Shown: piece by piece, positions 1 to 26,858 of the stretch
Layout: each line of letters starts with the position of its first letter
Position numbering within the stretch: position 1 is the stretch's first letter
IMG/VR virus record: IMGVR_UViG_3300026488_000015
Location: 32,001 to 96,000 of that record
Direction: 5' to 3' (one strand)
Source: a virus
Length of the DNA: 64,000 nucleotides
The notes under the pieces: model-generated
The model's database searches: none
Told to the model about the DNA's origin: nothing
The model's input: the letters and a program-made list of their open reading frames with translations, nothing else
Position numbers and translations under genes: made by a program

Positions 1-359
1 CAGCTGAATAAGAACATATTATCGTATATTATTTTTGTTTCATTTATCTTGTTTACGGCACCATCAGTAAATAGAATATTGTTACAAAGCACCACGAGGG
101 GTTGCCTACTGAAAACAATTTTATCTGTTATTTGTTTAATTTCGTTATCAGTAAAATTGTATTTGCTTTTGATAGCTACTACATATTCTTCTAATGTTAT
201 TTTCTCTGCATTTAATATGCAAACATTGAAGTGGTCTTTCAGTAGCCAAAAGTACTCGATGACTTCAAAAGTGTGACCACATATACCTTGGTCGTTGTTT
301 TTGTGCCAAGAATATGTCAATACTAAATCGTATTGTTTCAGATTTATTATCTTGCTCAT
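1..359 (-). CDS. GT-B-like protein, paralog 3 (partial, runs off window edge; not in ORF track)
   Basis: Manual translation MSKIINLKQYDLVLTYSWHKNNDQGICGHTFEVIEYFWLLKD...IKSKYN..., open to base 1; GHTFEVIEYF and KSKYN match GTLFYAMEYF/SAKYN and GILFYCIEHF/KEKYD of the next two ORFs. Confidence 0.6.
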   Translation of the reverse strand, partial: MSKIINLKQYDLVLTYSWHKNNDQGICGHTFEVIEYFWLLKDHFNVCILNAEKITLEEYVVAIKSKYNFTDNEIKQITDKIVFSRQPLVVLCNNILFTDGAVNKINETKIIYDNMFLFS

Positions 360-367
360 CTAGTTCC

Positions 368-1147
368 TTAATACGCTATAAAATCTTTTGTCACCTTGTA
401 CTCAGCATCTATTTGGAAGATACTAGCACCCATTTCCATACAAGCTGTATACCGTTCATTGACTGAATCGTTTGTGTCTTCAGCATTGAGGACAACGAGG
501 CTATTACCAAAATAGAATGCTTCAGGAATTATTCTGTTATTTCGTTCAAGATGCCTAGTGTGGTAGTAGATTATTTCTTTAAAATTGAAAATATCCAAAT
601 CTTTATTGAAATCTTTGTACACGACATCATATTTTGCTACTTCTTCTATTGTGCTTTTATCGATAGAACCAATACCAAGAGCTAGATGAGAACAAAAGGT
701 CTTATCTAGGTGTGGTGTCTTAGGTTTCATAAATTGAAAACCTATTTTAAATCGTTCTTTAATATTAAACTTTTGATAATCGTAAAAACCATATACAGAA
801 TCTTGCTCTCTAGCATTATGGTCACCATCATTAGAATACAGAAAAATTTTATCTATCTTCTGTGTAAAGTTTTGTATTTTATTATAAGTAAAGGTATCGA
901 GTACTAATGCCTTTTTTGTTACACTCTTAAGCAAATCGATAGGCTTTATCTTTACTACATTATCAAGATTTATTATATCATACTTTTCCTTAATAATACC
1001 TTTAATGACATCTATATCACCATCAAAAATGACGCATAACTGTACATCTTCGTACTTGGAAATATATAAGAAATGTTCTATACAGTAAAATAATATACCA
1101 GTCATAATGAGGTTTGGGTTTACATAGATTATAATTTTTGAATTCAT
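368..1147 (-). CDS. Putative glycosyltransferase-like (GT-B) protein, paralog 2
   Basis: C-terminal ERNNRIIPEAFYFG is an EX7E-type motif; clear paralog of 1149-1868. Confidence 0.5.
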   Translation of the reverse strand: MNSKIIIYVNPNLIMTGILFYCIEHFLYISKYEDVQLCVIFDGDIDVIKGIIKEKYDIINLDNVVKIKPIDLLKSVTKKALVLDTFTYNKIQNFTQKIDKIFLYSNDGDHNAREQDSVYGFYDYQKFNIKERFKIGFQFMKPKTPHLDKTFCSHLALGIGSIDKSTIEEVAKYDVVYKDFNKDLDIFNFKEIIYYHTRHLERNNRIIPEAFYFGNSLVVLNAEDTNDSVNERYTACMEMGASIFQIDAEYKVTKDFIAY

Positions 1148-1148
1148 A

Positions 1149-1868
1149 CTAATCCTTAAGGAAATCTTGTATCATTGAATCGCTAGCATCTAAGATGAAT
1201 TCTTCTATCGGGGATTGTAACCTATCTTGAATGCTATCATCAAAATCTAGTTTATTGTCTATTATTAGTTCTTTGTTGAAATATCTTGCTTCAATAACAA
1301 ATCTATTATTAGTATCAAAACCATTATGTACATACTTCCAAGTTTTGTATTCCATCAAATTCATAAAGGTATTAGGTTTTTTTGCGTCCTCTCCATTTAT
1401 TTTATGCATATCTAAAGATGAACGAAAAACCTCATATTTTTCTTCATATTTCTTATGGTATTTTAGCCCTAATTTTAGTCGCTCTCTTCTGTTGAATTTT
1501 TGATAATTATAATACCCGTAAGTGTTTGTAGATACCTCATTATTACCGTTTTCAGAATACAAGAAAATACTATATCTGATTAATGGTTTACATTTAATAT
1601 AGGTATTGGTATCTAATATCAAAACTTTGTCGTTTATTATTTTAAGTAGGTTTGTGTAATTTGAAAATATTATGAATTCGTTTAGTTTTTTATCGTAGTT
1701 ATACTTGGCACTAAACACTTCCATAATTTTACTGAAAGTGGCTTCATCAGTTCTCAATATAAGTTGAGTAGGTTCTATCTCGTTAAGAACCAAAAAGTAC
1801 TCCATAGCATAGAAAAGTGTACCGTTAATGATTTTTTTAGGCATTACATAATATAGTACACTTTTCAC
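1149..1868 (-). CDS. Putative glycosyltransferase-like (GT-B) protein, paralog 1
   Basis: DTNNRFVIEARYFNKELII (D/EX7E-like); shares LDT, YGYY.YQKFN..ER.K.G blocks with 368-1147. Confidence 0.5.
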   Translation of the reverse strand: MKSVLYYVMPKKIINGTLFYAMEYFLVLNEIEPTQLILRTDEATFSKIMEVFSAKYNYDKKLNEFIIFSNYTNLLKIINDKVLILDTNTYIKCKPLIRYSIFLYSENGNNEVSTNTYGYYNYQKFNRRERLKLGLKYHKKYEEKYEVFRSSLDMHKINGEDAKKPNTFMNLMEYKTWKYVHNGFDTNNRFVIEARYFNKELIIDNKLDFDDSIQDRLQSPIEEFILDASDSMIQDFLKD

Positions 1869-1876
1869 AAAAACTC

Positions 1877-2485
1877 TTATCTATTCATTTTATCGTAAGC
1901 AATATAAAAATCACCGAGAATTTTATCAACCTCTTCTGTATCTTTTGCATTAATGATTTTCTTCACAAAATCAGCACACATATTCCCAAAGTCAATAGAT
2001 GTAGTTACTTTATCTAAGAGTATTAAGTAGCTTTCTAGTTTTTCTATGATTGCTTCATCATCTTTTTCAATAATTTCAATATATTTTTCTTCACGATTAC
2101 TATTAGTGATTACAAACCCTTCGGCAGTAAGTTCATTGTTTAAAACAGTAAAAGAAACAATATCTAAAGATGTCATATTTGCCATATTATATGACATCTT
2201 CTTATTTACTCTCATCATATTAATTTTCTTATATACTTCAAATTCATCTACTGCTTCATCAGAAATATTAATATCCCCTGGAAGTGCTTCATCAGTTATC
2301 ATTTCTTTATTAATAGTGATGGTCTTCCCTTCTGAAAGACCATCACTAATCAACTGATAACTATTATAAGAAAGCTTAATAACTTTATCCTCTCTATTTG
2401 CTAAACCGTCAAACGAACTTTTAGTAGTACCAGTCACTAAATAATGAGTACCTCTATCTTCTACTATTGCTAATTCAAATATCAT
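1877..2485 (-). CDS. Hypothetical protein, possibly a fibre chaperone
   Basis: 202-aa ORF with SD; C-terminal IINAKDTEEVDKI resembles ISTAVDVEEVLSY of the DUF4376-like ORF at 21331. Confidence 0.4.
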   Translation of the reverse strand: MIFELAIVEDRGTHYLVTGTTKSSFDGLANREDKVIKLSYNSYQLISDGLSEGKTITINKEMITDEALPGDINISDEAVDEFEVYKKINMMRVNKKMSYNMANMTSLDIVSFTVLNNELTAEGFVITNSNREEKYIEIIEKDDEAIIEKLESYLILLDKVTTSIDFGNMCADFVKKIINAKDTEEVDKILGDFYIAYDKMNR

Positions 2486-2509
2486 TTTAAATCTCCTTTA
2501 ATTTTATTT

Positions 2510-3010
2510 TTATGCATAGTTACAACCACAATTACCGTGACAAGTACACACGCTGTGGCCGCCGCAGTCACTATTACATATACAATCAGTTCTAAGCGAA
2601 TTGTATAATGCTAACATATCTGATGCTAATTTACTTGCATAAACAATGCTACCAGCAGAGACGGCACCAGTCGAACCGTGCCCTGTGCCGTTTAAATCAA
2701 CAATCAATTTATTAAAATCGTTTGCATAAACAGTATCACCTACAGCGATTCCCGCTGTAGCAGTTGTACTAAAATTATAGTTACCATTCTGATTCCATCT
2801 AGCAATTTCATTAATTGTGTTTGCTCTTAATAATTCTAAATCTGATGCGTTAATTATATTCCCAGCAGTTGCATTTGATAATGCAACTACTCTATTAGAA
2901 GCACAAGATGCTCTATTATACGAGCAACTATCAGTAGTACAATTACTAGTACAATGCGAAGGAGTACACCACCCCGTAGATGTTGCCGCCGTCCCTGAAC
3001 CTACTGCCAT
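2510..3010 (-). CDS. Cys-rich protein, candidate radical SAM substrate or small fibre protein
   Basis: 12 Cys in two terminal clusters around three G..I/V.A.D/K..L repeats; directly downstream of a rSAM gene. Confidence 0.65.
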   Translation of the reverse strand: MAVGSGTAATSTGWCTPSHCTSNCTTDSCSYNRASCASNRVVALSNATAGNIINASDLELLRANTINEIARWNQNGNYNFSTTATAGIAVGDTVYANDFNKLIVDLNGTGHGSTGAVSAGSIVYASKLASDMLALYNSLRTDCICNSDCGGHSVCTCHGNCGCNYA

Positions 3011-3011
3011 A

Positions 3012-4130
3012 TTATTTTCCTCCTAAAAGTTGCGAGAGAGCTCTATCTACTTTTCCAAACGCTTGATAGTAACCACATAAACCGTGAACTTGGTTATCTA
3101 ACCATTTATCTTCGTAAGAATCCTTTTGTGAAGCAGCATAAGATGAAGTAGGACAAACAAAACAAGTAGTTGCTACACAACTTTTGCATTGCTCGTTTGT
3201 CTTAGCTATCATCTTACTAAACTTCTCTCTATCTAACTTATTTATATCACCGTCAAGCGATAAAAGTTTGTGGTTCTCTTTATCATCAAGATATAAAGCA
3301 CCGTGGCACGGGTAGAAATTACCATCTGTGTCAAGTATAGTCATATTCTTACCAGAAGAACAAGTAAATCTAGTATCATCTCCTCTGTACCAACTGAATA
3401 GCATATGACCAAATTCTGAATAAAAGTCTAATTCTAGTGCACTTATTTCTCTAATTGCTTGTTCAAAATAAGGCAAATAAGTATTAGGGTCTTGAAGTTT
3501 TGTATGGTAATCAAGAGTAGGTGAATATCTAACATAGGTCGTTTCGCTATCATATTTTCTTTTTAAATCTCTAAATTCTTTCCATACAGTAACCATATTA
3601 TGCACCTCAGATAAAGGGAGTGTGCTTTTTAGGCTTAATGATTTTAGTCCTGCTTTACTCAACCAATCGAAAGTTTTAAGTACTTTATCGGCTGTTGATT
3701 CGCCTTTATGGTCTATACGGAATTTATCGTTAATTATTCTACCATCATACGATACTTGTACTCGTAGCTTAGAAGCATCAACACTATTAATGAATTTTTC
3801 CATAGTGCTTTGGTTAAAAGCATTAGTATATAAGTGATAATCAATATTATCATAATCGTGGAAATAGTTCATAAGCTCAGTCATAACATAGTTATTAAGA
3901 GTAGGTTCTCCACCCCAAAAATCTACACCAAGAGTATCATATTCTGCTTTAAACCAATCAGACGCTAAGGTTTCTTTAATTTTTTCTATATATTGAGGTA
4001 TATTTTGGTTTACTTGTTTATTATCAACAGCTTTTTCACCTTCAAAACAATATGTACAAGCCATATCGCAAGTCGTTACTGTGGTAATTTCAAAATTGAA
4101 CCCTCCTTTTGTCTGTATTCTATCACTCAT
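3012..4130 (-). CDS. Radical SAM/SPASM-domain protein
   Basis: CDMACTYC, WGGEPTL, YTN, VSYDG, SPASM CSSG...DGNFYPCH...CKSC...C..C...C. Confidence 0.93.
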   Translation of the reverse strand: MSDRIQTKGGFNFEITTVTTCDMACTYCFEGEKAVDNKQVNQNIPQYIEKIKETLASDWFKAEYDTLGVDFWGGEPTLNNYVMTELMNYFHDYDNIDYHLYTNAFNQSTMEKFINSVDASKLRVQVSYDGRIINDKFRIDHKGESTADKVLKTFDWLSKAGLKSLSLKSTLPLSEVHNMVTVWKEFRDLKRKYDSETTYVRYSPTLDYHTKLQDPNTYLPYFEQAIREISALELDFYSEFGHMLFSWYRGDDTRFTCSSGKNMTILDTDGNFYPCHGALYLDDKENHKLLSLDGDINKLDREKFSKMIAKTNEQCKSCVATTCFVCPTSSYAASQKDSYEDKWLDNQVHGLCGYYQAFGKVDRALSQLLGGK

Positions 4131-4402
4131 TACATTTTCCCTTTCATTGATAGAATATCATCTATTATGGTTTGTAATTCAGCTTCTTCCATTTTATCTG
4201 CTTCAAGTTTTATCTCTTCTAGCATTTTATTACCCATATCCGCCAATATTGCACTCATTTCAGTAGATACTGGTAGCAACTCTACTGATGCCTCCATCAG
4301 TTTTGTAGAAGCCGCAAATAGATGAGCGTTTCTATCATTCTTAGATAAGATAATTTTCTCTACTCTATTAGCAGAATTCTCGTTTAGTGTTTTATTAATC
4401 AT
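4130..4402 (-). CDS. Hypothetical helical protein between the two rSAM genes
   Basis: 90-aa ORF, stop overlaps start of 3012-4130, SD AAGGA. Confidence 0.6.
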   Translation of the reverse strand: MINKTLNENSANRVEKIILSKNDRNAHLFAASTKLMEASVELLPVSTEMSAILADMGNKMLEEIKLEADKMEEAELQTIIDDILSMKGKM

Positions 4403-4411
4403 TATGTTCCT

Positions 4412-5368
4412 TTAAACCCAGCTAACTAAATCAGCAATGAGGTCTTTATTTAATTTATTTATATTGCCTACAAGTATACCGTAGATAAACACATACATTT
4501 CGCATAGATATTCTATCGGTTTTTGGTTTTCTAGCTGTTGTATCAGACAACCTTTCTCGCAATATTGGTTTACGCTACAACTCTTACAGAAATCTTGTAT
4601 TGTTTCTGAATTTACTTGCGAATTAAAAATATCTTCTTTATCAAAATATCTGTAACAACTAAAAAATTTATTATCGTGAAATGCTAGAACAGTATCCCCA
4701 GCACCACAATCTTTTGGTGAGTATCCTTTTTTATGGTATCTAAGTATATGAGTTAAAAAATGAATGAAAAATGCTGGTATAGTATTTGTTGATGTAGCAT
4801 AATCCATTAATCCAGAAATATCTTCTTTGGCTTGCTCTATATTATCTTTATGCCATATACCGATATCCCTGACAATAGTAATCCCAGGATTAACTCCAAA
4901 CATATTGTACAATAATTTATGATTATCTTTCAACCCAAACATTGTACCATTCCACATAGCGTGTATTTTCAAATCATCGATAGTTCTAATAAGCTCTATT
5001 AAAGCCGGATGGAAGTCTTTTCCTCGCTCTGATTGCCAAATACCATCGTGAGATACAGAAACAGTCACTTTATTGTCGTTGAATATTTTGATTATGCCCG
5101 GTGCTAGTAGCAACCCATTAGTCATAATATTAGTTTTGAACCCATTACTATTACTGTACTCTATGAATTGTATGACTAAAGGCATTTGCATTAAAGGTTC
5201 TCCGCCCATAATATCAAAAATGTAATTTTCGTTTTCCTCGTATATATCTTCAAATTCTTTCTTAAATGTATCGAATGATATTTTTTCCGTTGATTTTTTG
5301 TCTATTATATAACAGTAAGAGCAGTCTAAATTGCACCCTTCTGATAATATCAGCGATATATGCTTCAT
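4412..5368 (-). CDS. Radical SAM/SPASM-domain protein
   Basis: CNLDCSYC, MGGEPL, TNG, VSHDG, CGAG...SCYRY...CKSC...C..GC. Confidence 0.93.
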   Translation of the reverse strand: MKHISLILSEGCNLDCSYCYIIDKKSTEKISFDTFKKEFEDIYEENENYIFDIMGGEPLMQMPLVIQFIEYSNSNGFKTNIMTNGLLLAPGIIKIFNDNKVTVSVSHDGIWQSERGKDFHPALIELIRTIDDLKIHAMWNGTMFGLKDNHKLLYNMFGVNPGITIVRDIGIWHKDNIEQAKEDISGLMDYATSTNTIPAFFIHFLTHILRYHKKGYSPKDCGAGDTVLAFHDNKFFSCYRYFDKEDIFNSQVNSETIQDFCKSCSVNQYCEKGCLIQQLENQKPIEYLCEMYVFIYGILVGNINKLNKDLIADLVSWV

Positions 5369-5427
5369 AAAATTCCTTTCCTCTTCATCAGAGCCGTTGA
5401 GTGGTTTATCTATCCTTTATTTACAGT

Positions 5428-5449
5428 ATTATAACATAAGAGCACTTAA
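5428..5449 (-). promoter_or_regulatory. Early/host sigma70-type promoter TTAAG-N6-TATGTTATAAT for the rSAM operon
   Basis: Same motif recurs at 38700, 55824, 56742, 59085, 59502, 60303, 62454, 62706; extended -10 TGnTATAAT. Confidence 0.75.
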
Positions 5450-5464: not shown

Positions 5465-8400
5465 CTAAACTTTTACTGTTACTGTTCCATCGATTGAATC
5501 TTCTAAACAAATTCCGATTAATCTTTTTGATTCGTTGAAGTCGTAATCATCAACACCATAACCTTTACCATCTTTTCCAGCTAGCAAATATTGACCTTTC
5601 TTGGCTTCTGTTACAAAACAAGGAATCTTTCCTTTAAGTGCTATTGCTAAGTAAAGTTCATTTTCTGCTATCTCATCAGTATTATTCATTAGTAACGCAG
5701 GGTCAGTAGAAACAACTCCTGCTAGTTTCATACCTTCTTCGTACATAGTGATTTCATTATCCCCGCCGATACCCATTACAGTACCTGGAACCTGAACTTC
5801 ATCACTAAAGTAGTTTTCTGCTACATCGGCATATCTAGCAGATGTAGCAGTTAAGTAAGCTTTACCGTTTGAACCGTTTAAGAATATTCTTGCATCACCA
5901 TCAGAAGCAACATACATACCCCAACCCGCACCAGTTTGAGAACCGATGAACGAAGCAGATGCATCAGTAAAACCTATACCGTACATATTACCTAATGATG
6001 CATCTGAAGGGTTATAACTAGAACCGATAGTATAAATTGGGTTAGATTTAAGACTATTACCACCAACATTATTATAAGAACCTTCTAAGTGACCAGTGTG
6101 GTGATTATGTCTAGCATAAGTAACAGCTTTTACTCTATTTGAGAATGTAGCATACTCATCAACTTGTAAAGTACCTTCGATTTTGGTATTTTTACCATTG
6201 TCGCTTAATGTTACAACACCTCTAATTCTTGTAGTATCAGTCGTAGCGTTACCAAGAGTTGTATTACCTGAAACAGAAAGATTCGATTGTACATATAATG
6301 AACCACTATTAAGTGACATTCTAGTTATATCTGCTGAACTACCTGATTTAGTTACCCAAGCAAAGTTTTCGTTCCCGTTATCTCCAGTTCTAAATTCTAG
6401 TCTATTATTCGATGCAGAATCAGTAGTCGTAATGAACTTGATACTAGCTGTATCAGTTACAGAACTCCAATAAATACCTTCACCTGATGAGTTGAATTGG
6501 ACTGTACCTTCTACTGTTACACCAGAACTATTAGTAGCTAGTTTTTCTACGCCATTATTGTATAAATGAACACCAGCATTTTGGTCACACCAAATAGCGT
6601 TTTCTGAAGAACTATTTCTAAGTATTAAATCTCCACCAGTACTTTGGATATATAAGTTACCAGTACCTTGTTCTTCAATATAAGAGTGGCTACCTGAGTG
6701 GTAAATATCTAAATCAGAACTGTTACCTAAGTATAAGTGCTTATTATCATCGAATCTCATATCAGCTTGTACAGTTGTAGTGGCTTTAATTGTTAAAGCA
6801 TCACCCGTTGAGTCACCTAGTGTAGTATCGTTATATACTAATAAAGAAGTTAAATTAATATGATTCATTCTTGAAGTACCAGCAAAGTTACCGTAGTAAC
6901 CCGTAATATCTGAATCATAATAAATTGGTGCATAAACTGAAGTACCAACATATAATTTCTTAGCTATAGCAACACCACCTCTGAATCTTGCTCCTGCAAC
7001 AGTAGTACTACTTGCATCTAAAATACTTAAAAAGTCTGTATTATTATTTGTGTAAAATATTCTCATTGCTTCATAAGCAGGTATTCCAGTCGTTGTACTA
7101 AGTGAACCCATACCGATGTGACCGTAACCATCGCCAGTATAAGTCATACTTATAGAAGCACCAGCACTTTCACCTAATGTGATACCTGCTGATTGCTCGA
7201 TTGTACCTTCACTTGAAGAATCTAATGTAATCCAAGGTCTATTTTTTGTAATATTAATATCACCTTTAGTATCAAGTGCACCATCTCCATATACTCTGAA
7301 TCTAGTATTAGCTGATGTAGTTAGAGAAGCTGATGTATTAGCTCTTAAATCCATAAGAACATCTGAACCAGATACCCCCTTACCTTCTCCATCCATTTCT
7401 AGTACGATTCCGTAAGAATCGCTAACATCTACTTTATGTGAGATATAAAGTGAAGGACTTGCAGATGCACTAACATCGCTAATTGTCATTTTACCATTAA
7501 CAGTAGCACCAGTACTAGTAGTTTCAAATCTTTGAGAACCGTTGTAGTATAAATGAACACCTTCGTTTTGGTCACACCAGATTGCATTCTCTGTCGTTGA
7601 TGTTCTAAGATATAAATCACCTGAAGTACTTCTAATGTACATACTTCCAGTACCTTGGTCTTCAATGAAAGAATTTGAACCATCGTGGTAGATGTCTAAA
7701 TCTTTACCTGAACCGAAGTATAAGTGGTCGTTATCAGTAAATCTCATATCAGCTGTAACAGTTGTAGTAGCATTAATCGTTAATGTATCACTTGTACTAT
7801 TTCCAAGAATATTATTACCATTAAATGTTCCATTACCCGTTACTGTAAGATTACTACCAAATGATACTGATTGAGCAACATCTAATGAACCATTAATAAC
7901 AGTAGCTCTACCAGTGTCACTTAAAGTAACAGTACCTCTGATTCTTGTAATGTCTGCTGAACTATCACCTAGTGTAGTTGTTCCTAGAACATATAAAGAA
8001 CTTTTTAACTTAGTTGCTTCATCTACATCTAATGTACCTTCAACTCTCGTTAATTTACCATTATCAGATAATGTAACAGTACCTCTAATTCTTGTAGTAT
8101 CAGTCACAGCATTACCAAGAGTCGTGTTACCTAGAACATATAGTGTGTTGTTGAGCGTTGTCGCGCCTGTCACTGCTAGAGTACTTAAAAGTCTTGTCGC
8201 GCCCGTTACATCTAATGTCTTAGCGAAATCTACATCACCACCAACATTTAGTCTTCTAGCGATTCCTACTCCACCCTTAATAGCTAATGAACCACTATTA
8301 TAATTTGAACTATCCAAAGTACTTCTGAATTCTAAAGTTCCTTCAGTTGAACCATCTTGGACATCGATATAGCTAGTATTATTACCATCGATACCTTGTT

Positions 8401-11400
8401 TGAAGTAAACTAACCCACCATCTTGCGACATTTCGATAGCAACATTATCGCTCTCATCTACATTATCTGTGTCGCTTTGTAATCTGATAACCAAATCACC
8501 TTTTGCTTTCACATCATATAAGAAATTATCTGTAATGATTGTTTCTGTGTAATTACCACTTGAAGTGATTGTACTTACAATATCATTAACTGTTGTAGTG
8601 CTAACAATATCACCTGATACTGCAGTAGCTCTAGTAATATTTGTAGCATTAATAGTTTCACTAATATTAACAGCATCTAATAGGTATCGGAAATCATCGT
8701 GTGCATCGTATGTTACTTCGATGTCATCATCAGGTGATGTCATACTCCAAATAAAGTTACCGTGACTATCTTCAGCAACTAATTCATTGCTTTTGTTATC
8801 TCTAAGAGTTTTCGTCCAAACTCTCCATACACCAGCAATCTTTTGTCTTACCCAAATATTGTTAGAAGCATCATTCATTGCATAAGCAACTTGTGTACCA
8901 TAAGTATCACTATTTGTGTGCATCATCGTTACAACGAATGCCCAAGCACCTAAATCATCTGGTTCATTTGTAACTGAACCTTTATCGATATTGTAAACAC
9001 TATTTCTAACGATAGCATCTAAATTACCAGTATATGTTTCGTGTCTTTTGTTCTCTTTGTAACCATCTAAATTCCACTTACTAAGAAGCTCTTCTTGTGT
9101 ACCAGAAATTGTTCTAATAGGTGTTTCATCGTTAAATTCTTTAAGACCAGAGATTAATTCGTGCTCATCAGTCGTAACCATATGAGAATCAATCTCAATA
9201 AGACCATCAACTAAATTCTGTGCTACAAATCTTTCACTAAAATCATCACCTGAATCTGTTGTTTCTTGTAATTTTGAGATTCTACCAATTTCTGCATCGT
9301 GAATATTATGTGCTCTAACTAAATCTTCAGCAGGCGTATTATCATCGTAATATGTCGTAGTCATTGTAGCTAAATCACCGATTTCAAAATCGTGTTCATT
9401 AATACTAGAAACAACATCGATACCCGTTGTTGTTAGTTCATAAATGTTACCAATCTCTAAATCGTGTACATTTAGTGCAGTGATAATATCTTTAGCAATC
9501 TCACCCTGATTAGGGTCAATATCTTCTGTATGCTGTACTGTTAATTCTCTGTAATCACCCTTTTCAACTTCATTGATATTAATTGATTTAACTAAAGAAT
9601 CACCATTAACACCTTCTTGGAAGGCTGGAGAATACATAATAATATCTTCTTTGTCGCCAACATCGATTTCAAGATTGTGTAATCTTAATGAGTTTTCAGC
9701 AGAAACATCTACATATCCGTAATACTCACGGAATTCAATAATCCAACCTTCTTCCATTGTATCAACAAAACGAACACGACGCTCATCTACTTCAATATAA
9801 TCATCATTTTCTCTAAGAATAAGACCGTTTAAGTAAACATCTAATGATTTTCTATCATTTGTATATTTTCTTTGATTGGGTACAGTAATAATCTCACCTT
9901 TCTCTACATCTTCAGGAACCTCGTAATACTCTCTCATACGACCAGTGCTCATTCCAGAGATACCATCTTCATCATATAAGATGCCGTAAGAATAAAGGTA
10001 TGCTGCATCGTGCTCAGGTCTTAATGCTGTATCATTTCTAACAAATCTGAACCACATATTATCTTGTGCAGGGTCTGTTATGATATGCTGTTGATGCTTA
10101 CCATCGTACCAAATACCGTCTGTTCCATCGCTAGAATCGAATGAGTATTGAACATCATAATAAGCACCGTTATTGTTATCATTGATATAAGGGTAAACCA
10201 TATCGTAAAGGTCTGTGTTATCAGGACCAAAGATACTTTCGTTAGTACCAATAATATCACCTTCATTTTGAGCTAAGTATGCAGTTTCTCTTGCAACATA
10301 AACAACTGAACCAGTCGTAAGTGCTGTATAAGGTCTTTCAAAAGTTTCTACATAACATTTACTGAAAGGTGATTGCTGTAAGAAAAACTCATATTCAAGA
10401 GCTTCAGGAATAACACCATCACTTGCTGGATTATCAATATCTATTGCGAATAAAGTATCTGTAACTGCGATACCTGCTTTAACTGCTCCTGGGAATTTAT
10501 CTAATGTGATTCCACCTTTAACAGTAGCATCGATGTAGTAAATGCTACCTACTTCAAATCTTTCACCGACACCAAACATTGAATCAAGTCTAGCAGGAGT
10601 GAATTCTAGTGCTCCAGCAAAAATAATGTAATGCTGTAGTCCCATATTCATATAGAATCCTACTGCGTTTCCAGTTTCTGAACCATCACTAAGTGCTTTT
10701 TCATATAAACCAGTATCTAATTCTTTGTAAACAATATCAAAGTTCACAATATCACCGATTTCAGAACTAACAACTGGAAGACTGAAGAATGTAGCAGAAG
10801 CTTTATTTCTATCTACTGAAACGATTAAGTGTTGAGCATCAACAGCAATACCAACAGAAACAGAAACTTCTGTGTATTCTAGTTGTACTTTACCTTTGTC
10901 TAATTCATCTGTGCTTAAATAGTATTGTTTACCTGGAACTAAAGTCGTATTTGTAACACGAACATAACCATCATAAACGATATAATGTCTTGAATCGTAA
11001 ATCTTGTACATACCAGCAATAACTTCTTCATTAACACCAGAGTTAAAACCTTTCTCGTATTTTCCAGTATCTACATCAAAGAAAACGAAATCAGAATCAG
11101 AAATTGTTCCCACTTTACTTGAAGCGAACTCATAAACACCATTTTCGTGATATTCGTGTCTTTGAATGTCTAAAAGAAGTACACCTGCATCGATACCTCT
11201 ACCAATTTTCATACTTTGTGGTGGAGTTAAATCATCGTATGTTTTATATACGCCTTCTACTGTATCAGAAAGATAATAATCTTGTCCTGCTACGATACCT
11301 GATAATTCGACTAAACCAGCATAAACAATGTAATGTTTACCTTCATATAATTTGTATATACCAACAACTTCAGAAGCATCATCTGTATCAGATATAGCTT

Positions 11401-12355
11401 TTGAATAGATAGCTCCGTTTTTGTAAACGATGTCACCATCAGCTAATGTTGCTACTTCTGTACTATGTACTTGAAATAATGATTTTTCAGGAATAACTCT
11501 TTCGCTAATATTAACAACGATGTAATCTGTGCTTACTGCTCTACCAATTTTGATAGCGTTAGGTGCTTCATAACCATTGTAGTCGAATTTCTTGTAATCA
11601 CCTGAAACTGAATCAGATAAAAAGTAATCTTTTCCTACTTCTAAATCGTTATTAACAACTTTAACAAGACCATCATAAACGATGTAATGCTTAGTACCGT
11701 AAGATTTATAGAAACCTACAAGTCTATTTTCATCATCTTCAGAATTCTTTGCTTTCTCGTACTTTGTACCAGTGAAGTAAACTAAATCAGAATCATCGAT
11801 GTCGCCTTTTTGATTATCAGGGAATTCATAAGAACCTTGTTCAATAACTCTGTCTTCATCAACTTCTACTAAAATATGTGTAGGTGTTAGTGCTTTACCT
11901 ATTCTGATAGCACCTGGAAAAGGTTTATCATCAGAAAAACTCATAACTCCACCTAAAGTAGTGTCGCTTAAGTATTGGAATTGACCAACATTAAAGTTTG
12001 AACCTTCAATTTCTACTGCACCAGCAAAGATTAAGTACCAAGAACCTTCGTAGTTCTTAACTACACCAAAAGGTTTGTCTTTTCTGTAAGTATTGTTTGT
12101 TTCTGTATTGAAGATTGCTTTACCGTAGATGTATTCTCCGGCAACAAGTGGATTTTCGTAACGATATACTACATCTCCATCTTCTACTGAATTAATACCA
12201 CCTTCAAGGTCGATGTCAGCTAATGGAATTGTACTATTTGTGTACTCATAGTTATCAAGTTTAGTTACTAGTTGTTTAAGTGGACGATTAGCTACTTCAG
12301 GAGTTCCTCTTTCGCTTTCGTGTATCCAGTCTATTTCATTATATAAAGTTCCCAT
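5465..12355 (-). CDS. Giant mosaic tail fibre / receptor-binding protein (2296 aa)
   Basis: Five N-terminal ~115-aa G.V...G..YYLS repeats, a pyocin-knob-like segment (GTQVAY...IWVRQ..GVW..W), duplicated beta-rich blocks, C-terminal ARYADVAENY...GVVSTDPA.LMN...ALKGKIPC chaperone-type domain. Confidence 0.85.
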   Translation of the reverse strand: MGTLYNEIDWIHESERGTPEVANRPLKQLVTKLDNYEYTNSTIPLADIDLEGGINSVEDGDVVYRYENPLVAGEYIYGKAIFNTETNNTYRKDKPFGVVKNYEGSWYLIFAGAVEIEGSNFNVGQFQYLSDTTLGGVMSFSDDKPFPGAIRIGKALTPTHILVEVDEDRVIEQGSYEFPDNQKGDIDDSDLVYFTGTKYEKAKNSEDDENRLVGFYKSYGTKHYIVYDGLVKVVNNDLEVGKDYFLSDSVSGDYKKFDYNGYEAPNAIKIGRAVSTDYIVVNISERVIPEKSLFQVHSTEVATLADGDIVYKNGAIYSKAISDTDDASEVVGIYKLYEGKHYIVYAGLVELSGIVAGQDYYLSDTVEGVYKTYDDLTPPQSMKIGRGIDAGVLLLDIQRHEYHENGVYEFASSKVGTISDSDFVFFDVDTGKYEKGFNSGVNEEVIAGMYKIYDSRHYIVYDGYVRVTNTTLVPGKQYYLSTDELDKGKVQLEYTEVSVSVGIAVDAQHLIVSVDRNKASATFFSLPVVSSEIGDIVNFDIVYKELDTGLYEKALSDGSETGNAVGFYMNMGLQHYIIFAGALEFTPARLDSMFGVGERFEVGSIYYIDATVKGGITLDKFPGAVKAGIAVTDTLFAIDIDNPASDGVIPEALEYEFFLQQSPFSKCYVETFERPYTALTTGSVVYVARETAYLAQNEGDIIGTNESIFGPDNTDLYDMVYPYINDNNNGAYYDVQYSFDSSDGTDGIWYDGKHQQHIITDPAQDNMWFRFVRNDTALRPEHDAAYLYSYGILYDEDGISGMSTGRMREYYEVPEDVEKGEIITVPNQRKYTNDRKSLDVYLNGLILRENDDYIEVDERRVRFVDTMEEGWIIEFREYYGYVDVSAENSLRLHNLEIDVGDKEDIIMYSPAFQEGVNGDSLVKSININEVEKGDYRELTVQHTEDIDPNQGEIAKDIITALNVHDLEIGNIYELTTTGIDVVSSINEHDFEIGDLATMTTTYYDDNTPAEDLVRAHNIHDAEIGRISKLQETTDSGDDFSERFVAQNLVDGLIEIDSHMVTTDEHELISGLKEFNDETPIRTISGTQEELLSKWNLDGYKENKRHETYTGNLDAIVRNSVYNIDKGSVTNEPDDLGAWAFVVTMMHTNSDTYGTQVAYAMNDASNNIWVRQKIAGVWRVWTKTLRDNKSNELVAEDSHGNFIWSMTSPDDDIEVTYDAHDDFRYLLDAVNISETINATNITRATAVSGDIVSTTTVNDIVSTITSSGNYTETIITDNFLYDVKAKGDLVIRLQSDTDNVDESDNVAIEMSQDGGLVYFKQGIDGNNTSYIDVQDGSTEGTLEFRSTLDSSNYNSGSLAIKGGVGIARRLNVGGDVDFAKTLDVTGATRLLSTLAVTGATTLNNTLYVLGNTTLGNAVTDTTRIRGTVTLSDNGKLTRVEGTLDVDEATKLKSSLYVLGTTTLGDSSADITRIRGTVTLSDTGRATVINGSLDVAQSVSFGSNLTVTGNGTFNGNNILGNSTSDTLTINATTTVTADMRFTDNDHLYFGSGKDLDIYHDGSNSFIEDQGTGSMYIRSTSGDLYLRTSTTENAIWCDQNEGVHLYYNGSQRFETTSTGATVNGKMTISDVSASASPSLYISHKVDVSDSYGIVLEMDGEGKGVSGSDVLMDLRANTSASLTTSANTRFRVYGDGALDTKGDINITKNRPWITLDSSSEGTIEQSAGITLGESAGASISMTYTGDGYGHIGMGSLSTTTGIPAYEAMRIFYTNNNTDFLSILDASSTTVAGARFRGGVAIAKKLYVGTSVYAPIYYDSDITGYYGNFAGTSRMNHINLTSLLVYNDTTLGDSTGDALTIKATTTVQADMRFDDNKHLYLGNSSDLDIYHSGSHSYIEEQGTGNLYIQSTGGDLILRNSSSENAIWCDQNAGVHLYNNGVEKLATNSSGVTVEGTVQFNSSGEGIYWSSVTDTASIKFITTTDSASNNRLEFRTGDNGNENFAWVTKSGSSADITRMSLNSGSLYVQSNLSVSGNTTLGNATTDTTRIRGVVTLSDNGKNTKIEGTLQVDEYATFSNRVKAVTYARHNHHTGHLEGSYNNVGGNSLKSNPIYTIGSSYNPSDASLGNMYGIGFTDASASFIGSQTGAGWGMYVASDGDARIFLNGSNGKAYLTATSARYADVAENYFSDEVQVPGTVMGIGGDNEITMYEEGMKLAGVVSTDPALLMNNTDEIAENELYLAIALKGKIPCFVTEAKKGQYLLAGKDGKGYGVDDYDFNESKRLIGICLEDSIDGTVTVKV

Positions 12356-12382: not shown

Positions 12383-12390
12383 TATTTATA
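12383..12390 (-). promoter_or_regulatory. T4-type late promoter TATAAATA
   Basis: Exact consensus ~30 nt upstream of the fibre gene; exact copies also at 16132, 21315, 24058, 24869, 26857, 38247, 40818, 42569, 49898, 50257, 54691. Confidence 0.75.
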
Positions 12391-19238: not shown

Positions 19239-21293
19239 TTATATGAATTTAACACCAGCAAGTCTAGGTACTGTGTTTTTAACGAAACCGAAATTTTTAG
19301 ATTTAAAATCTACATCAGCAGTTTTAGGTATATTAAAGTCACTCTCTCTTAGAGTAACACCATCAATATCAATATCGATTCTGACTGATTTATCTCTAAT
19401 GGTATTTACAAAATTGTATATTCCTACTGGTATTAAACCCAAATAAATCTTGAAAGATATTAATTGGTTTGTTTTGTCAAGGTTACTTAAAGGTGTATCG
19501 AAATCTACATATAAATCCTTATACTCATCTGATTCTATATCAAAGTTAAAATCTTTACCAAAAATACTAGGAAGAACATCTACATTAATATCAGAAACAC
19601 CATAAATCTTTTGTTCGTTTACAGCTAAGTTCATAACAATCTTCTTACTTATTGAACCATCAACAGCTAACTCATCTTTAATTTGTGCTCTGAAGAAATT
19701 TATTTTTGTCTTAAATGTGTAGTCAAAACCAGAACTATCTCCTGCTGAAACATCCATCTTTTTAATAAGAGTTGAATTATAGTAATCAACATCATACTGC
19801 TCTAGCTCTTCAAAGAAATACTTTTTCATAATATCAAATAGAGTATTATGCACATAAGCTTTATTGATACTACTATATTTTGCCATTTCAATTTCATAGA
19901 AGAAATCGATAAAAACCGGGTGTCTATCGTTTAGTTCTATGGTAATAACTTTAAGATTAGATACTTCTTTCTTGATATTATTAATGTCAGCATCTAGTAG
20001 ATACATTTTCTCTGCATCAAGTAAATCGTTTCTTTTGAACTCGAATGAAACATCGTTTACATTTGTAAATGTTCTAGGAATATTTGCCGATAGAAGAGAG
20101 AACCAAACATTACCTAGTTGTTTAACGAGCTCATCTTCTCCACCCCAAATAAAGGCATTCTTAACTAAAGAATTACTTTCAATAAAAGTCTTGTAATCTA
20201 AAGTTGTTACAAGTCTGTTTCCTGAGTTGAAGAACATCGGAGCATTTGTCTTAATATCCTCATCTACTTCCTCATCTGTACCAGTAATAAAAGGAATGTC
20301 TGATTGCAATTCTGTAATAATTTCGTAGTTTGTCTCGACAAGAGCATCTTTCAGCGTAATCTTTTCAGAAGCAATACCTTCTGTACCAGAACTAACAATA
20401 ATATCTACATCTATTTTCGTATCTACAAGCAATGGGTTACCCATACCAGCAAATGTGAAATAAACTCTTACAGTTTCTTTTTCTATATTTCTAAGCTGTA
20501 AGTATTCGTTTGAGTATTTGAAGTCTTCATTTTGCTCTACAATAAGACTATCTCTCTTTTTCCACTCTTGCGATAACTCATTACCTTGGTCATTCACTGG
20601 AGTAACATAAACAAACACACCGTCATTTTCGATATTTTTATAAGGGATATCAATAAAGTTTTCTTCTACAATCGTACCTGCGTTATTTGTTGTTACACCG
20701 ATAGTGTATGAAAGTATAGCATTGTCTTGGTAACGAATTAATGTACCTTCTTTAACAATTAGTTCAAACTTCTTAATAATCTGCACACCGTGTTCATCAG
20801 TGCCATCGATTGGAGACCAAACTCCTGGTGCTAGTTCTTCTTTGGGTATGTATTCACCATTTTCAAAATCCCTAGGATGCGGTTCAATACTAATATCTTC
20901 ACCCAAATAGTAATAAGATTTTTCTCCTGCCGAGAAATTACTATATCTAAGTATATCCATAGGTGGATATAGTCCAGTAAAAGGCGAAACGGGTACAGTC
21001 GGTTCTTTTACTCTAAGATAAACTTTATATTGAAATGATTTCTTTAATGTGGCTTCGTAACCTATCTGTCTAGCAAGTGCCAAGATATTTTTTCGTTGTT
21101 CTGAGCTATTAAGCGTAATATCAGAAAGACCAAAACTCATATTCGTATTAACTATATTGATGGCATATGCCATTAAGTCTGTGAGAATAGCTGTATTAGA
21201 TGCATTTGAATCTACATCGTAACCTTTATTTCTCCATTGCTTCTTTAGGTCTTCGGCAATGTCTTCATATTCATAAGGTATAATTTTTGTCAT
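19239..21293 (-). CDS. gp6: Baseplate wedge subunit gp6
   Basis: LTDLMAY, NILALARQIGY, IKTNAP.FF..GNRLVTTLDY, IWGGED. Confidence 0.9.
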   Translation of the reverse strand: MTKIIPYEYEDIAEDLKKQWRNKGYDVDSNASNTAILTDLMAYAINIVNTNMSFGLSDITLNSSEQRKNILALARQIGYEATLKKSFQYKVYLRVKEPTVPVSPFTGLYPPMDILRYSNFSAGEKSYYYLGEDISIEPHPRDFENGEYIPKEELAPGVWSPIDGTDEHGVQIIKKFELIVKEGTLIRYQDNAILSYTIGVTTNNAGTIVEENFIDIPYKNIENDGVFVYVTPVNDQGNELSQEWKKRDSLIVEQNEDFKYSNEYLQLRNIEKETVRVYFTFAGMGNPLLVDTKIDVDIIVSSGTEGIASEKITLKDALVETNYEIITELQSDIPFITGTDEEVDEDIKTNAPMFFNSGNRLVTTLDYKTFIESNSLVKNAFIWGGEDELVKQLGNVWFSLLSANIPRTFTNVNDVSFEFKRNDLLDAEKMYLLDADINNIKKEVSNLKVITIELNDRHPVFIDFFYEIEMAKYSSINKAYVHNTLFDIMKKYFFEELEQYDVDYYNSTLIKKMDVSAGDSSGFDYTFKTKINFFRAQIKDELAVDGSISKKIVMNLAVNEQKIYGVSDINVDVLPSIFGKDFNFDIESDEYKDLYVDFDTPLSNLDKTNQLISFKIYLGLIPVGIYNFVNTIRDKSVRIDIDIDGVTLRESDFNIPKTADVDFKSKNFGFVKNTVPRLAGVKFI

Positions 21294-21330
21294 AAGTTGT
21301 ATCCCGTTTCTTATTATTTATAAGAAACGA

Positions 21331-21867
21331 TTACCAATTGTAACTAAGTACCTCTTCTACATCTACTGCTGTCGAAATAGCATTAAAAAGTGTTTGTTTC
21401 TTAGCGAAATCTGTCTGATATTTTACACCTATCGTTAAAATAACTGTCTCTGCTTCTGTCAATGTCAATGTATGAGGTACATTATCTACATCGAAAAATG
21501 TTACTGTTGTAGCACCACCCATTTCTGATAGTCTTTTAGCACCATCCAATTTTGTTACTGAAATATCTCCGCCGAACCAAGAAATATCATCTACAACGAC
21601 TTGCGTAAGTACCTCTGCGTCAAAACCTACACGGATAATTGATTTTTGTTCTTCTTTAATTCTCTCTAAATCAGATAAAATAGTTTCTTCAGACTTTCCA
21701 ACCCAAGTAATCTTCTTATCTTCAGTGCTTACTGTGTACTCATTTAGTGGTTTATCTACAACAACAGCTAAAATGTCGATTGTTGGTGCAGTAAATTCTG
21801 TACCCGCTTTGTTAAAAGTTGTTATACCAGTGACTCTTAGTGTAGTTTCATCATAATGTACAAACAT
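21331..21867 (-). CDS. Tail fibre assembly-like protein (DUF4376-like)
   Basis: FFDVDNVPHTLT...FAKKQTL..AI..A..VEEV...NW; follows a fibre gene. Confidence 0.6.
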   Translation of the reverse strand: MFVHYDETTLRVTGITTFNKAGTEFTAPTIDILAVVVDKPLNEYTVSTEDKKITWVGKSEETILSDLERIKEEQKSIIRVGFDAEVLTQVVVDDISWFGGDISVTKLDGAKRLSEMGGATTVTFFDVDNVPHTLTLTEAETVILTIGVKYQTDFAKKQTLFNAISTAVDVEEVLSYNW

Positions 21868-21868
21868 A

Positions 21869-23209
21869 TTATTCTCCTTTCCATATTTCGCTGAAATCTA
21901 ATGCTGTTGGCACTGTCCCATTTTTAAGTAAATATCCTTTGATTCTCCAACCTTCAGATATTACATATATTCTATCTCCATTTTCAGGTAAGATAGATTC
22001 TGTTCCCTCTGGATTACTCATTGGGTTATAATCACTTGCAAACTGACTAACAGCTAAGTGACCTTGTGTATGAATTTCTAATAAAACAGAAATCTTATGT
22101 ATAGGTTGTGGTGAACCTGGAACACCGTAAAAAATATCGGGACTATGGTCGAATGTTTCAAAAATTACTTTGTATAATCCTGGAACTAATGTGAGTTCTA
22201 AATCAGAACTTACTCCACCCCATTGTTGTTGCCACCAGATACCAGGCACAAGATTACCTGCATCCCACACATCGTTCCCATTTACTGTTGGTCTTGTAGT
22301 AAAATCTTTAAGTGCTGAAATCGTTTGTACTGTATTAGTCGTAACAGCATTTGAAGCATTTTGTTTCAGGTTAAGTGCTGCTTGTGTAGCATTACTAATA
22401 GGTTTATCAAGGTCAAAAACATTATCCACATTTGTTAATCTTGAATTAATATCATCAAGCTTACCTTGAGTAATAGTATTTGTAGGTTTCTCTAAATCGT
22501 TTGTATTATCTACACGCTCTAATTCAAGGTTTGTTTTTGATACAGTAATATCATCGAATGTATTATCACATCTTCTACTATCAGCTAATCTAGGGTCGTT
22601 ACCTACTGTCACTTCTGAAGCAGTTACACCAAAATTCTTATTGAAAGCTGTGTTTTTAGTGAAAGCATCTTCTTTAGTGTCAATTTCAGTCTGTGTAGCT
22701 GTACTAATAGGTTTTTCTAAATCGTTTGTGTTATCTACACGCTCTAATTCAAGGTTTGTTTTTGAAATAACTATATCATCGAATTCATTATTACATTTAC
22801 GAGAATCCGAAAGCCTAGCATCATCACCTCTTGTTACAGTACTCGAAGTTGCTCCAAAGTTTCTATTGAAAGCTGAGTTCTTAGAGAAAGCATCTTCTTT
22901 AGTGTCGCTCTCAGTTTGTTGTGCTGTACTAACTGGTTTATCCATATCAGAAGTGTTATCCACATTATCCAGGCTTAAGTTTACTTTAGAAATATCAGCA
23001 TCATCGAATGTATTATTACATCTTCTCGAATCGACCAATCTAGGGTCTGAATCGTGAACACCTTCAAGTCTAGTAATTTCATCATAGAAAAAATCAATCG
23101 CTGCTTGTGTAGCTGTACTGATTGGTTTCTCTAAATCATTCGTGTTTTCTACTCTATCAAATTTCTTCTCTATCGCCTTTATTTTAGTATAATCAAAAAT
23201 ATCCATCAT
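21869..23209 (-). CDS. Short tail fibre with VDNTxDxxKPxS repeats
   Basis: Five VDNT.DL.KP.S.A.Q repeats, GDDARLSDSR/GNDPRLADSR, QTISALKDF...VWDAGNL; ~225-nt DNA periodicity. Confidence 0.75.
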   Translation of the reverse strand: MMDIFDYTKIKAIEKKFDRVENTNDLEKPISTATQAAIDFFYDEITRLEGVHDSDPRLVDSRRCNNTFDDADISKVNLSLDNVDNTSDMDKPVSTAQQTESDTKEDAFSKNSAFNRNFGATSSTVTRGDDARLSDSRKCNNEFDDIVISKTNLELERVDNTNDLEKPISTATQTEIDTKEDAFTKNTAFNKNFGVTASEVTVGNDPRLADSRRCDNTFDDITVSKTNLELERVDNTNDLEKPTNTITQGKLDDINSRLTNVDNVFDLDKPISNATQAALNLKQNASNAVTTNTVQTISALKDFTTRPTVNGNDVWDAGNLVPGIWWQQQWGGVSSDLELTLVPGLYKVIFETFDHSPDIFYGVPGSPQPIHKISVLLEIHTQGHLAVSQFASDYNPMSNPEGTESILPENGDRIYVISEGWRIKGYLLKNGTVPTALDFSEIWKGE

Positions 23210-24033: not shown

Positions 24034-24060
24034 TTAATCACCTTCCATATTTCTAAGTAT

Positions 24061-24405
24061 TTATATTACTATACTAATTGAAGTAAAATCTGTTTCTTCT
24101 TCAGTTCGTATTCTGTATTGTACATTTATCGTTAAACGATTATATTCGGGAGCGAATGTCACTTTTGTATTAACTTTATCGACCCTAGGTTCATTTGCCG
24201 TAACTAGAGTATTTACATAAGATTCTAAGTCAATAATATCAAGTTCATCTAAATCACTAAAAATATAATCCATTATCTTCGAACCCTTTGTTGGTTGAGC
24301 AGGGATAGTACCTTTTGGTGTACTAATGATATTCTTTATGCTTCTACGGATGACATCACGATTTTCTATATCATCGCCTTCTATATCTTTATATTTTAAA
24401 GCCAT
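24061..24405 (-). CDS. gp25: Baseplate wedge subunit gp25
   Basis: IRRSIKNIISTPKG..P..P..GS.I...IF, NEPRV; start moved to MALKYK (AGGAG SD). Confidence 0.88.
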   Translation of the reverse strand: MALKYKDIEGDDIENRDVIRRSIKNIISTPKGTIPAQPTKGSKIMDYIFSDLDELDIIDLESYVNTLVTANEPRVDKVNTKVTFAPEYNRLTINVQYRIRTEEETDFTSISIVI

Positions 24406-24406
24406 T

Positions 24407-24838: not shown

Positions 24839-24863
24839 GAATACTCCTTATTTTAATATACTT

Positions 24864-24885
24864 TTAAGTATTTATATGTTATAAT
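24864..24885 (+). promoter_or_regulatory. Orphan plus-strand early-type promoter overlapping a minus-strand late promoter
   Basis: TTAAG TATTTA TATGTTATAAT matches the early consensus exactly; the spacer contributes to TATAAATA on the other strand. Confidence 0.55.
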
Positions 24886-24969
24886 CTCTTGGATAGAAAA
24901 TTTATTGTCTTTGTGTAGAAGCAAAAACAAAAAAAGTTTTTTTTACTTTATCGTGTGATAACCCTGCCT

Positions 24970-26838: not shown

Positions 26839-26858
26839 AAATATACCTTTTCAAGTAT

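Follow-up and report, generated by a model that had tools for sequence, protein, structure and literature searches.

What are two radical S-adenosylmethionine (rSAM) enzymes doing directly beside the tail fiber genes of a phage, when cross-linking by rSAM/SPASM enzymes is known for small peptides (sactipeptides and ranthipeptides) and one enzyme subunit (QhpC)? The question is raised by positions 1 to 5449 of a 64,000-nucleotide stretch of viral DNA (the window, bases 32001–96000 of IMG/VR record IMGVR_UViG_3300026488_000015). Two rSAM/SPASM genes (rSAM_A and rSAM_B) stand there with a gene for a Cys-rich protein of 166 amino acids (Cys166), two further small proteins and three distant, glycosyltransferase-like paralogs, as eight tightly packed open reading frames (ORFs) on the minus strand, downstream of an ORF of 2296 aa. 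A preliminary description, made from the letters of the window, had named this packed operon and its order behind a giant fiber gene, and all of the genes that it listed are present. We put forward, at about even confidence, that the region heads a conserved tail fiber maturation cassette in which the SPASM enzymes install Cys-to-Asx thioether-type links in the Cys tails, with glycosylation to follow. Judged from sequence, chemistry of the peptide-antibiotic type probably hardens or decorates the host-recognition fiber. The genes are as follows.

rSAM_A: 4412..5368, minus strand; 318 aa, radical SAM with a SPASM-type seven-Cys C-terminal domain
p90: 4130..4402, minus strand; 90 aa, helical, Cys-free
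rSAM_B: 3012..4130, minus strand; 372 aa, radical SAM/SPASM; 1-nt overlap of its ATG with the p90 stop
Cys166: 2510..3010, minus strand; 166 aa, 12 Cys, predicted fiber-tip protein
Cys166 N-terminal Cys motif (residues 15–39): 2894..2968, minus strand; five Cys
Cys166 C-terminal Cys block (residues 142–165): 2516..2587, minus strand; DCICNS DCGGHS VCTCHG NCGCNY
p202: 1877..2485, minus strand; 202 aa, beta domain plus helical bundle
par239: 1149..1868, minus strand; GT-B-like family member with a D-x7-E motif
par259: 368..1147, minus strand; GT-B-like family member, paralog of par239
par298, first 119 codons: 1..359, minus strand; 298 aa when read on in the genome, predicted fold resembling GT-B/GT4

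A Cys-Rich Gene Tied to One SPASM Enzyme

The association between rSAM_B and the Cys gene is strict. An rSAM_B ortholog lies directly upstream of the Cys gene in 18 of the 18 distinct contexts that have upstream DNA, comprising 13 IMG/VR loci together with L028, L030, L032 (TAG read as Gln), L033 and L036 (TGA read as Trp). The same order recurs in L043, L045, two Halobacteriovorax genomes and one Bdellovibrionales metagenome-assembled genome. Separation of the Cys-rich gene from the rSAM genes in relatives had been named at the outset as a result that would count against the idea; the two stay together in all 18 contexts, under three genetic codes and in bacteria. A p202-like gene directly follows the Cys gene everywhere except in L025, with a transferase-like gene next, and a helical ORF of 64–100 aa stands ahead of rSAM_B in nearly every locus. 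Around a constant rSAM_B-Cys-p202 unit, the sugar genes vary in position and content. The genes of the phages at L032 and L036 translate only with TAG as Gln and TGA as Trp, respectively, and the cassette has therefore spread across recoded phage lineages.

Seen from the side of the enzyme, a survey with an rSAM_B profile covered 51 viral loci, each scanned for a Cys-dense ORF within 3.5 kb, and found a Cys-dense repeat protein in 43, immediately downstream in 36. A Cys module recognized by hidden Markov model (HMM) lies downstream at 32 of the 51 loci, 29 of them at a distance of 3–65 nt. Among the loci without a recognized module, seven have another Cys-dense ORF immediately downstream and one has it immediately upstream; three Campylobacter phage records carry it 2.2 kb upstream of their rSAM_B relative. 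The background for such Cys density is 1 in 368 six-frame ORFs of the window's own 146-kb genome.

When 50,697 deposited phage genomes were searched, for near matches and at the protein level, neither the region nor Cys166 found a match; rSAM_B alone recovered relatives, these being distant Campylobacter phage genes. Full-text literature searches returned no paper that ties radical SAM/SPASM enzymes to tail fibers or virion proteins, and the SPASM-flanked Cys-repeat fiber cassette is probably a previously undescribed arrangement.

Two Enzymes Resembling Peptide Maturases

Both enzymes are rSAM/SPASM proteins, as first described. Pfam Radical_SAM (PF04055, cutoff 29.5 bits) matches rSAM_A at 49.0 and rSAM_B at 36.3 bits, and the CxxxCxxC triad is found at C12/C16/C19 and C21/C25/C28, respectively. 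Beyond the triad each enzyme has exactly seven Cys in SPASM order, the eighth conserved Cys being absent, and the ten Cys are invariant in 18 of 18 rSAM_B orthologs and in 15–16 of 16 rSAM_A orthologs. Measured against the reference motif CX9-15GX4C ... CX2CX5CX3C ... C, which holds two auxiliary 4Fe-4S clusters, rSAM_A has CX2CX5CX3C at 261–274 and is missing the Gly of the first part, and rSAM_B has CX2CX4CX2C as its second part. The SPASM model TIGR04085 gave rSAM_B 26.4 bits (cutoff 27), and rSAM_A was not among the 25 best matches listed.

The nearest curated families of both enzymes are PapB, QhpD, SCIFF/CteB, the CXXX-repeat family and anSME, all far below their cutoffs. PapB is the best NCBIfam match for both, with 84.9 bits for rSAM_B (E 6e-24, full length) and 62 bits for rSAM_A; neither reaches the 340 bits of the equivalog NF047865. 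QhpD (TIGR03906, cutoff 453) comes second or third with 59.2 and 55.6 bits, and PapB, QhpD and HxsB, each far under its cutoff, are the nearest NCBIfam families of rSAM_A. Among solved structures the best match is CteB (5wgg), with E 4.6e-9 for rSAM_B (residues 20–327) and 3.1e-8 for rSAM_A. CteB likewise has seven auxiliary Cys, which we take to leave one auxiliary-cluster site open for a substrate thiolate. CteB has an N-terminal recognition element (RRE), whereas neither phage enzyme has one, because both begin at the radical-SAM core.

Cys166 and Its Relatives as Fiber Tips

The middle of Cys166 is folded and its ends are not. In an AlphaFold2 (AF2) model built from 18 sequences the core, residues 40–143, forms three loop-helix units with a predicted local distance difference test score (pLDDT) of about 90, and the G..I.A.D..L repeats noted earlier are real, corresponding to these three units. 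The Cys tails (residues 1–33 and 145–166) are disordered in the AF2 monomer, with pLDDT below 50. The N-terminal motif has the core C-x2-(H/N)-R-x2-C-x-(S/T)-N-R, in which R33, C36 and N39 are invariant and C29 nearly so in two alignments. The C-terminal block is the best-conserved part of the protein (majority-residue fraction 0.84, gap-free, with insertions falling in the middle of the protein), and its family-wide framework is C-x-C-x3-C...C-x-C-x3-C-x-C-x-Y. A fold search of the PDB with the Cys166 core found nothing, and in BFVD the only matches, all weak (E 0.01–0.3), were uncharacterised proteins of rudiviruses and phages.

A search of 5.8 billion proteins yielded 10 relatives of Cys166 and scans of IMG/VR gave 13 loci; the family profile minus Peptidase_S74, run against 1.84 billion representatives, gave 362 clusters at E<=1e-3. 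In some of these clusters the Cys module is the C-terminal end of fibers of 616–789 aa. In homologs, the sequence past ...CGCNY reads SDxRLKxNI..., and a domain called Peptidase_S74 by Pfam begins straight after the block (40.9, 29.9 and 24.3 bits, cutoff 22); it is present at nine of the first 13 loci and in about 25 of 159 family representatives. Peptidase_S74 is an intramolecular chaperone-protease of endosialidases and tail fibers. Since homologs carry this chaperone and the module ends long fibers, Cys166 is a structural fiber component and not a secreted peptide, which agrees with the structural target favored in the preliminary description, and its family would consist of trimeric fiber-tip modules. 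The S74 domain is reported to ensure trimerisation and to cleave at the Ser of SDxxxK (PMC10769870). The S74 fibers endosialidase K1F, T5 pb1 and Bdellovibrio MAT show the same layout as the Cys166 homologs, with SDxxxK right after the tip module. They differ from the present family in that neither a Cys-repeat tip nor a link to radical SAM is mentioned for them in the literature searched.

The protein in the window has no S74 domain and terminates at ...CGCNYA, and its phage appears to have lost the domain found in relatives. Close relatives keep a 12-aa stump, and a stump of exactly this length occurs in about 45 of the 159 representatives. In relatives ending in the stump (SDMRLKKEIQYC, 12 aa), the remainder of S74 picks up in the −1 frame immediately past CTT AAA AAA G, a split of frameshift type seen at L044:1100-1445 and also at L043:5460-5651. 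A −1 slip would restore S74, making this a candidate programmed frameshift that could give fibers with and without the chaperone. N-glycosylation sequons were considered as conserved sites and set aside: several N-x-S/T occur in the window's Cys166, and they are absent from several family members. The family alignment has no conserved sequon or Ser/Thr site.

The Repeat Register and a Possible Maturation Route

The Cys blocks are tandem arrays whose period and copy number vary, from (D-C-x-C-N-x)4 in the core family to (C-T-C-x-C-N-Y)7-10 in L069, L070, L074 and CP220 gp140 and (C-H-S-N)n in L076. Counted over 1311 block Cys in 164 proteins, Asn/Asp occupies position +3 in 65% and His does so in 12%, and Asn/Asp stands at −3 in 54%. 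At even positions around a block Cys, another Cys is found in 38–53% of cases; the odd positions hold N/D/H/G. Precursors with rSAM-modified repeats typically vary in the copy number of a short tandem Cys unit. In NxxC, the peptide maturase NxxcB attaches Cys at the beta-carbon of the Asn, with Asp, Gln and Ala tolerated, and PapB joins Cys to Asp, both products being beta-thioethers (PMC9389541). We prefer a thioether mechanism because variable-copy Cys/Asx units beside a SPASM enzyme are the layout of ranthipeptide precursors.

On this model rSAM_B, and probably rSAM_A, would each hold a pair of auxiliary Fe-S clusters, of which one keeps a coordination site free. A tail Cys would bind the open site, a hydrogen would be taken from a nearby residue and a ring would form by a Cys-S-to-carbon thioether, the most likely acceptor being the Asn/Asp at a distance of three residues, on the pattern of PapB, NxxcB and QhpD. 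The C-terminal block of Cys166 is the proposed substrate of rSAM_B. Such rings would lock the fiber tip covalently, p90 and p202 may act as accessory or assembly partners, and the GT-B-like proteins, supplied by the sugar genes of the surrounding island, could glycosylate the fiber afterwards. In relatives, S74 would trimerise the protein and then, in the manner of a follower peptide that removes itself, cut itself away precisely where the Cys block ends. The wider proposal, that uncultured phages, Firehammervirus relatives and Halobacteriovorax share a widespread new class of fiber maturation with SPASM thioether rings in fiber-tip Cys/Asx repeats, an S74 follower and a transferase-added glycan, is more tentative, and we place it somewhat below an even chance.

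The closest parallels are PapB/PapA (freyrasin) and NxxcB/NxxcA, in which, as here, a SPASM rSAM enzyme stands beside a substrate with tandem short Cys/Asx motifs. The present system differs from them in its register, which is C-x-x-N/D (+3) and not CX3D or NxxC alone, and in its candidate substrate, a fiber protein of 150–790 aa with a folded core in place of a leader-core peptide; its scores are far below the family cutoffs, an RRE was not found and no antimicrobial role is implied. In QhpD/QhpC a SPASM rSAM joins Cys to Asp/Glu in a subunit that stays within a larger assembly; the target here would be a virion or cell-surface fiber instead of an enzyme subunit, and genes related to cysteine tryptophylquinone are absent. 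The RiPP-like (peptide made by the ribosome and modified after translation) system with transferases of the preliminary description stands in part: transferase genes persist in the relatives, but it is only an analogy because no RRE or leader peptide was found among the cassette proteins.

Weighing the Alternatives

Besides this lack of an RRE or leader, several points count against thioether maturation. Every NCBIfam match is far under its family cutoff, the PapB score of rSAM_B being about a quarter of that required, and SPASM enzymes also act on non-peptide substrates. Distant family members often have Tyr in place of the Asn that follows CxC, and they keep the Cys framework. The alternation of Cys and Asx equally suits a beta-strand with a metal-binding or disulfide face, and the CxC runs bear a resemblance to metallothionein. 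The GT-B likeness of the paralogs depends on predicted models at both ends of the comparison, and tight gene packing is usual in phages. A scheme of one rSAM per Cys tail was also rejected, as L025 and the long fibers carry the C-terminal block only and keep both rSAM genes.

The main rival has the Cys block bind metal or form disulfides. The blocks would then be metal-thiolate, Fe-S or disulfide-zipper elements stiffening a trimeric tip, by analogy with the His-x-His iron needle of T4 gp37 and the CxC clusters of metallothionein, and the rSAM enzymes would do other work, such as sugar tailoring or modification of another protein. We consider this unlikely but keep it at appreciable weight because the strand-like alternation, with Cys in 38–53% at even positions, would put all Cys on one strand face. 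It would also account for the pairing of Cys with His in (CHSN)n and CxCH units, for the Tyr-for-Asn exchange on a constant Cys framework, and for tails that are unstructured in AF2, as expected if a cofactor or trimer is needed; the island, moreover, has a full sugar pathway and seven further rSAM genes. What it leaves unexplained is why one specific SPASM enzyme is tied to the Cys gene across lineages and genetic codes while the sugar genes vary, and rSAM_B aligns over its full length with peptide thioether maturases, not with sugar-modifying rSAM enzymes.

Those sugar genes could themselves be the point of the locus. The rSAM enzymes, Arn-like enzymes and transferases might make an amino-pentose glycan, possibly S-linked to fiber Cys as in glycocins, with no cross-links formed. 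The set of genes suits such a glycan factory (UDP-glucose dehydrogenase (UGDH)-like, a UXS/ArnA-like short-chain dehydrogenase/reductase (SDR), DegT-like, GT2, polysaccharide deacetylase and PIG-L), a UGDH-like gene stands between fiber and rSAM_A in most relatives, and transferases always come after p202, with a GT8 replacement in L036. This explanation seems to us less probable again than metal binding: the sugar genes shift in position and content around a constant rSAM_B-Cys-p202 unit, rSAM_A and rSAM_B most resemble peptide maturases, and no sequon or Ser/Thr site is conserved. Modification of phage DNA by the transferases and rSAM enzymes, giving bases like T4 glucosyl-hydroxymethylcytosine or Campylobacter deazaguanine, with the fiber neighborhood coincidental, is very improbable. 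T4 DNA glucosyltransferases do have a GT-B fold, the relatives G001 and G003 carry a thymidylate-synthase-family gene, and Firehammervirus phages combine many rSAM genes with modified DNA. However, the source record (68% complete) has no match to the thymidylate-synthase family, hydroxymethylase-type enzymes, TGT or T4 glucosyltransferases, the cassette is syntenic with fiber genes in very different phages, and it occurs in Halobacteriovorax chromosomes without phage replication genes. The idea keeps its small weight because the record is incomplete.

The Smaller Proteins and the GT-B-Like Paralogs

No Pfam, PHROG or NCBIfam family matches p90. A reading of p90 as a PqqD-type RRE was not supported, the protein being all-helical, poorly conserved and without a family match. 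In a 63%-identical relative (L045:1-3000) the order is an rSAM of 311 aa, a 90-aa protein, rSAM_A of 319 aa, a 99-aa protein and rSAM_B. The succession of an rSAM gene and a helical ORF of about 90 aa is thus doubled there, and each small helical protein may therefore pair with one enzyme.

The AF2 model of p202 (pLDDT 86.7) has a small beta domain (residues 1–75) and a helical bundle (81–201), and its alignment has 25 invariant columns. PDB and other structure searches gave no specific or informative match, the template modeling (TM) score to PqqD clusters was only 0.27, and the chaperone-like tail once ascribed to this protein found no support in the fold searches. We infer that p202 is an assembly factor or tip-binding partner, because its fixed place after the fiber-tip gene is the usual site of phage assembly and tip-binding genes.

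The three paralogs had been called GT-B-like; their paralogy is well founded, whereas the GT-B assignment comes from model similarity and is not joined by a Pfam match. The sequences of par239 and par259 are 30% identical (E 2e-25), and their family is homologous to that of par298 (hhalign 97.4%, E 1.5e-11). An ESM-Atlas model of par298 (pLDDT 0.66) aligns with cluster models of GT4 Glycos_transf_1 over 242–267 residues at TM 0.64–0.70. Pfam gave no glycosyltransferase match at E<=1 for par239, par259, par298 or 13 relatives of par298, and the 432 relatives of par298 are all unannotated, the search of 5.8 billion proteins yielding no glycosyltransferase annotation. D242-x7-E250 is invariant in the par298 family, and the par259 family counterpart, D201-x7-E209, has an invariant Glu and a nearly invariant Asp; this D-x7-E may be equivalent to the EX7E of GT-B enzymes. 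In L036 a GT8 gene stands in place of the GT-B-like gene, a non-orthologous replacement.

Relatives in Halobacteriovorax and Campylobacter Phages

The full cassette with sugar genes is also found in Halobacteriovorax sp. CON-3 (NZ_JBEBNA010000001.1, about 1.70–1.75 Mb; L039, L041 and L042), on a 2.2-Mb contig with EPSP synthase/chorismate synthase on one side and further housekeeping genes on the other. A prophage origin for this copy was rejected, since the flanks are aromatic-amino-acid, TolC and peptidase genes and no phage structural homologs lie within 20 kb. Also encoded in that island is a protein of 526 aa (L042:9987-11567, minus strand) that combines a prepilin N_methyl motif with Peptidase_S74. 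Predatory Bdellovibrio-like bacteria use phage-like S74 fibers, in an account that leaves radical SAM unmentioned (PMC10769870).

The Firehammervirus phages CP220, CPt10 and CP21 resemble the window's phage in having many rSAM genes and a Cys-repeat protein near an rSAM_B-like gene, but in them the two genes are not adjacent. Compared with the nine rSAM proteins, gp136 of CP220 comes closest to rSAM_B (E 3e-39), and gp140 (L001:4152-5756), a protein of 535 aa with 35 Cys and (CTCDCNY)x7, lies 2.2 kb upstream of it. In L069, L070 and L074 the protein encoded directly downstream of an rSAM_B relative ends in ten copies of the same unit. The Cys repeat of gp140 is preceded by a G..I.A..F helix resembling the Cys166 repeats. 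Homology of gp140 to the Cys166 family was not accepted: the likeness at the level of the motif is striking, without statistical support (hhalign 24%, HMM not significant). In the CP220 genome paper 11–12 rSAM genes are reported, CPT_0180 is noted to contain a 21-bp intragenic repeat, and a metabolic benefit for the host is proposed (PMC2853527). That repeat encodes the (CTCDCNY)x7 of gp140.

If the proposed maturation is correct, a virion fiber as substrate would be a new use of SPASM cross-linking chemistry, in which RiPP chemistry serves the construction of host-recognition organelles. The many unexplained rSAM genes of Campylobacter phages and of uncultured relatives of these, published as boosters of host metabolism (PMC2853527), would acquire a purpose, and there would be a new route to receptor-binding tips that resist heat, reduction or proteases, with a bearing on phage host range, phage engineering and the building of adhesins by predatory bacteria. 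The families concerned are large and wholly unannotated (362 Cys-module and 432 transferase-like clusters), and cultured carriers are at hand in CP220-type phages and Halobacteriovorax isolates.

The Larger Island and Its Genome Setting

The operon as originally delimited is the head of something longer. It runs about 12 kb beyond base 1 of the window, forming an island of about 17 kb with nine radical-SAM genes and a sugar pathway. After par298 and on the same strand come rSAM197, rSAM288, GT2, rSAM277, rSAM254, rSAM314, a 309-aa protein of unknown type, rSAM306, a short DegT-like protein, rSAM336 and a UXS/ArnA-like dehydrogenase, followed by two deacetylases, one PIG-L and one for polysaccharide, and by a short UGDH-like protein. 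The sugar genes make up an Arn-like amino-pentose set, the UXS/ArnA-like SDR scoring 109.6 bits to PRK11908. In most relatives the UGDH-like gene is located between the fiber gene and rSAM_A. The best-conserved gene of the island is rSAM336, with 50–61% identity to relatives. The seven further rSAM proteins, encoded outside the window at 20548–32359 of the genome (L002:8048-19859), are short (197–336 aa) and have C-terminal motifs of 5–6 Cys. The UGDH-like (245 aa) and DegT-like (215 aa) proteins are also unusually short, their length being conserved.

The source record is viral, 146.5 kb long with 33% GC and a completeness rating of 68%, and we regard the phage as large, uncultured and T4-like. 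Further up the window come genes for the baseplate wedge and the tail sheath. Two features stand at the head of the cassette.

Giant tail fiber, 2296 aa: 5465..12355, minus strand; neighbor outside the cassette proper, matching PHROG tail-fiber families
Extended −10 promoter-like site TG-n-TATAAT: 5428..5436, minus strand; read from the sequence as a consensus match

The last ~150 residues of the giant fiber (5468–5917) resemble a Peptidase_G2 autochaperone, matched in five of six aligned C-termini (best E 1e-5; 0.074 for the window's own fiber). A gap of 96 nt separates the fiber stop (5465) from the rSAM_A start (5368) and holds the extended −10, which is followed by the Shine-Dalgarno sequence GAGGAAAGGA ahead of rSAM_A. 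Of the operon's suggested early-type promoter, the consensus stands, but a promoter scan gave no entry at 5428–5436. A T4-type late promoter, TATAAATA, lies at 12383–12390 ahead of the giant fiber gene, and the motif precedes the fiber gene at 16132 too. The same motif occurs inside the operon on the minus strand at 4456–4463 (54 nt before p90) and 3239–3246 (229 nt before Cys166); its count across the window is 20, not above the chance value of 15.5 +/- 3.9.

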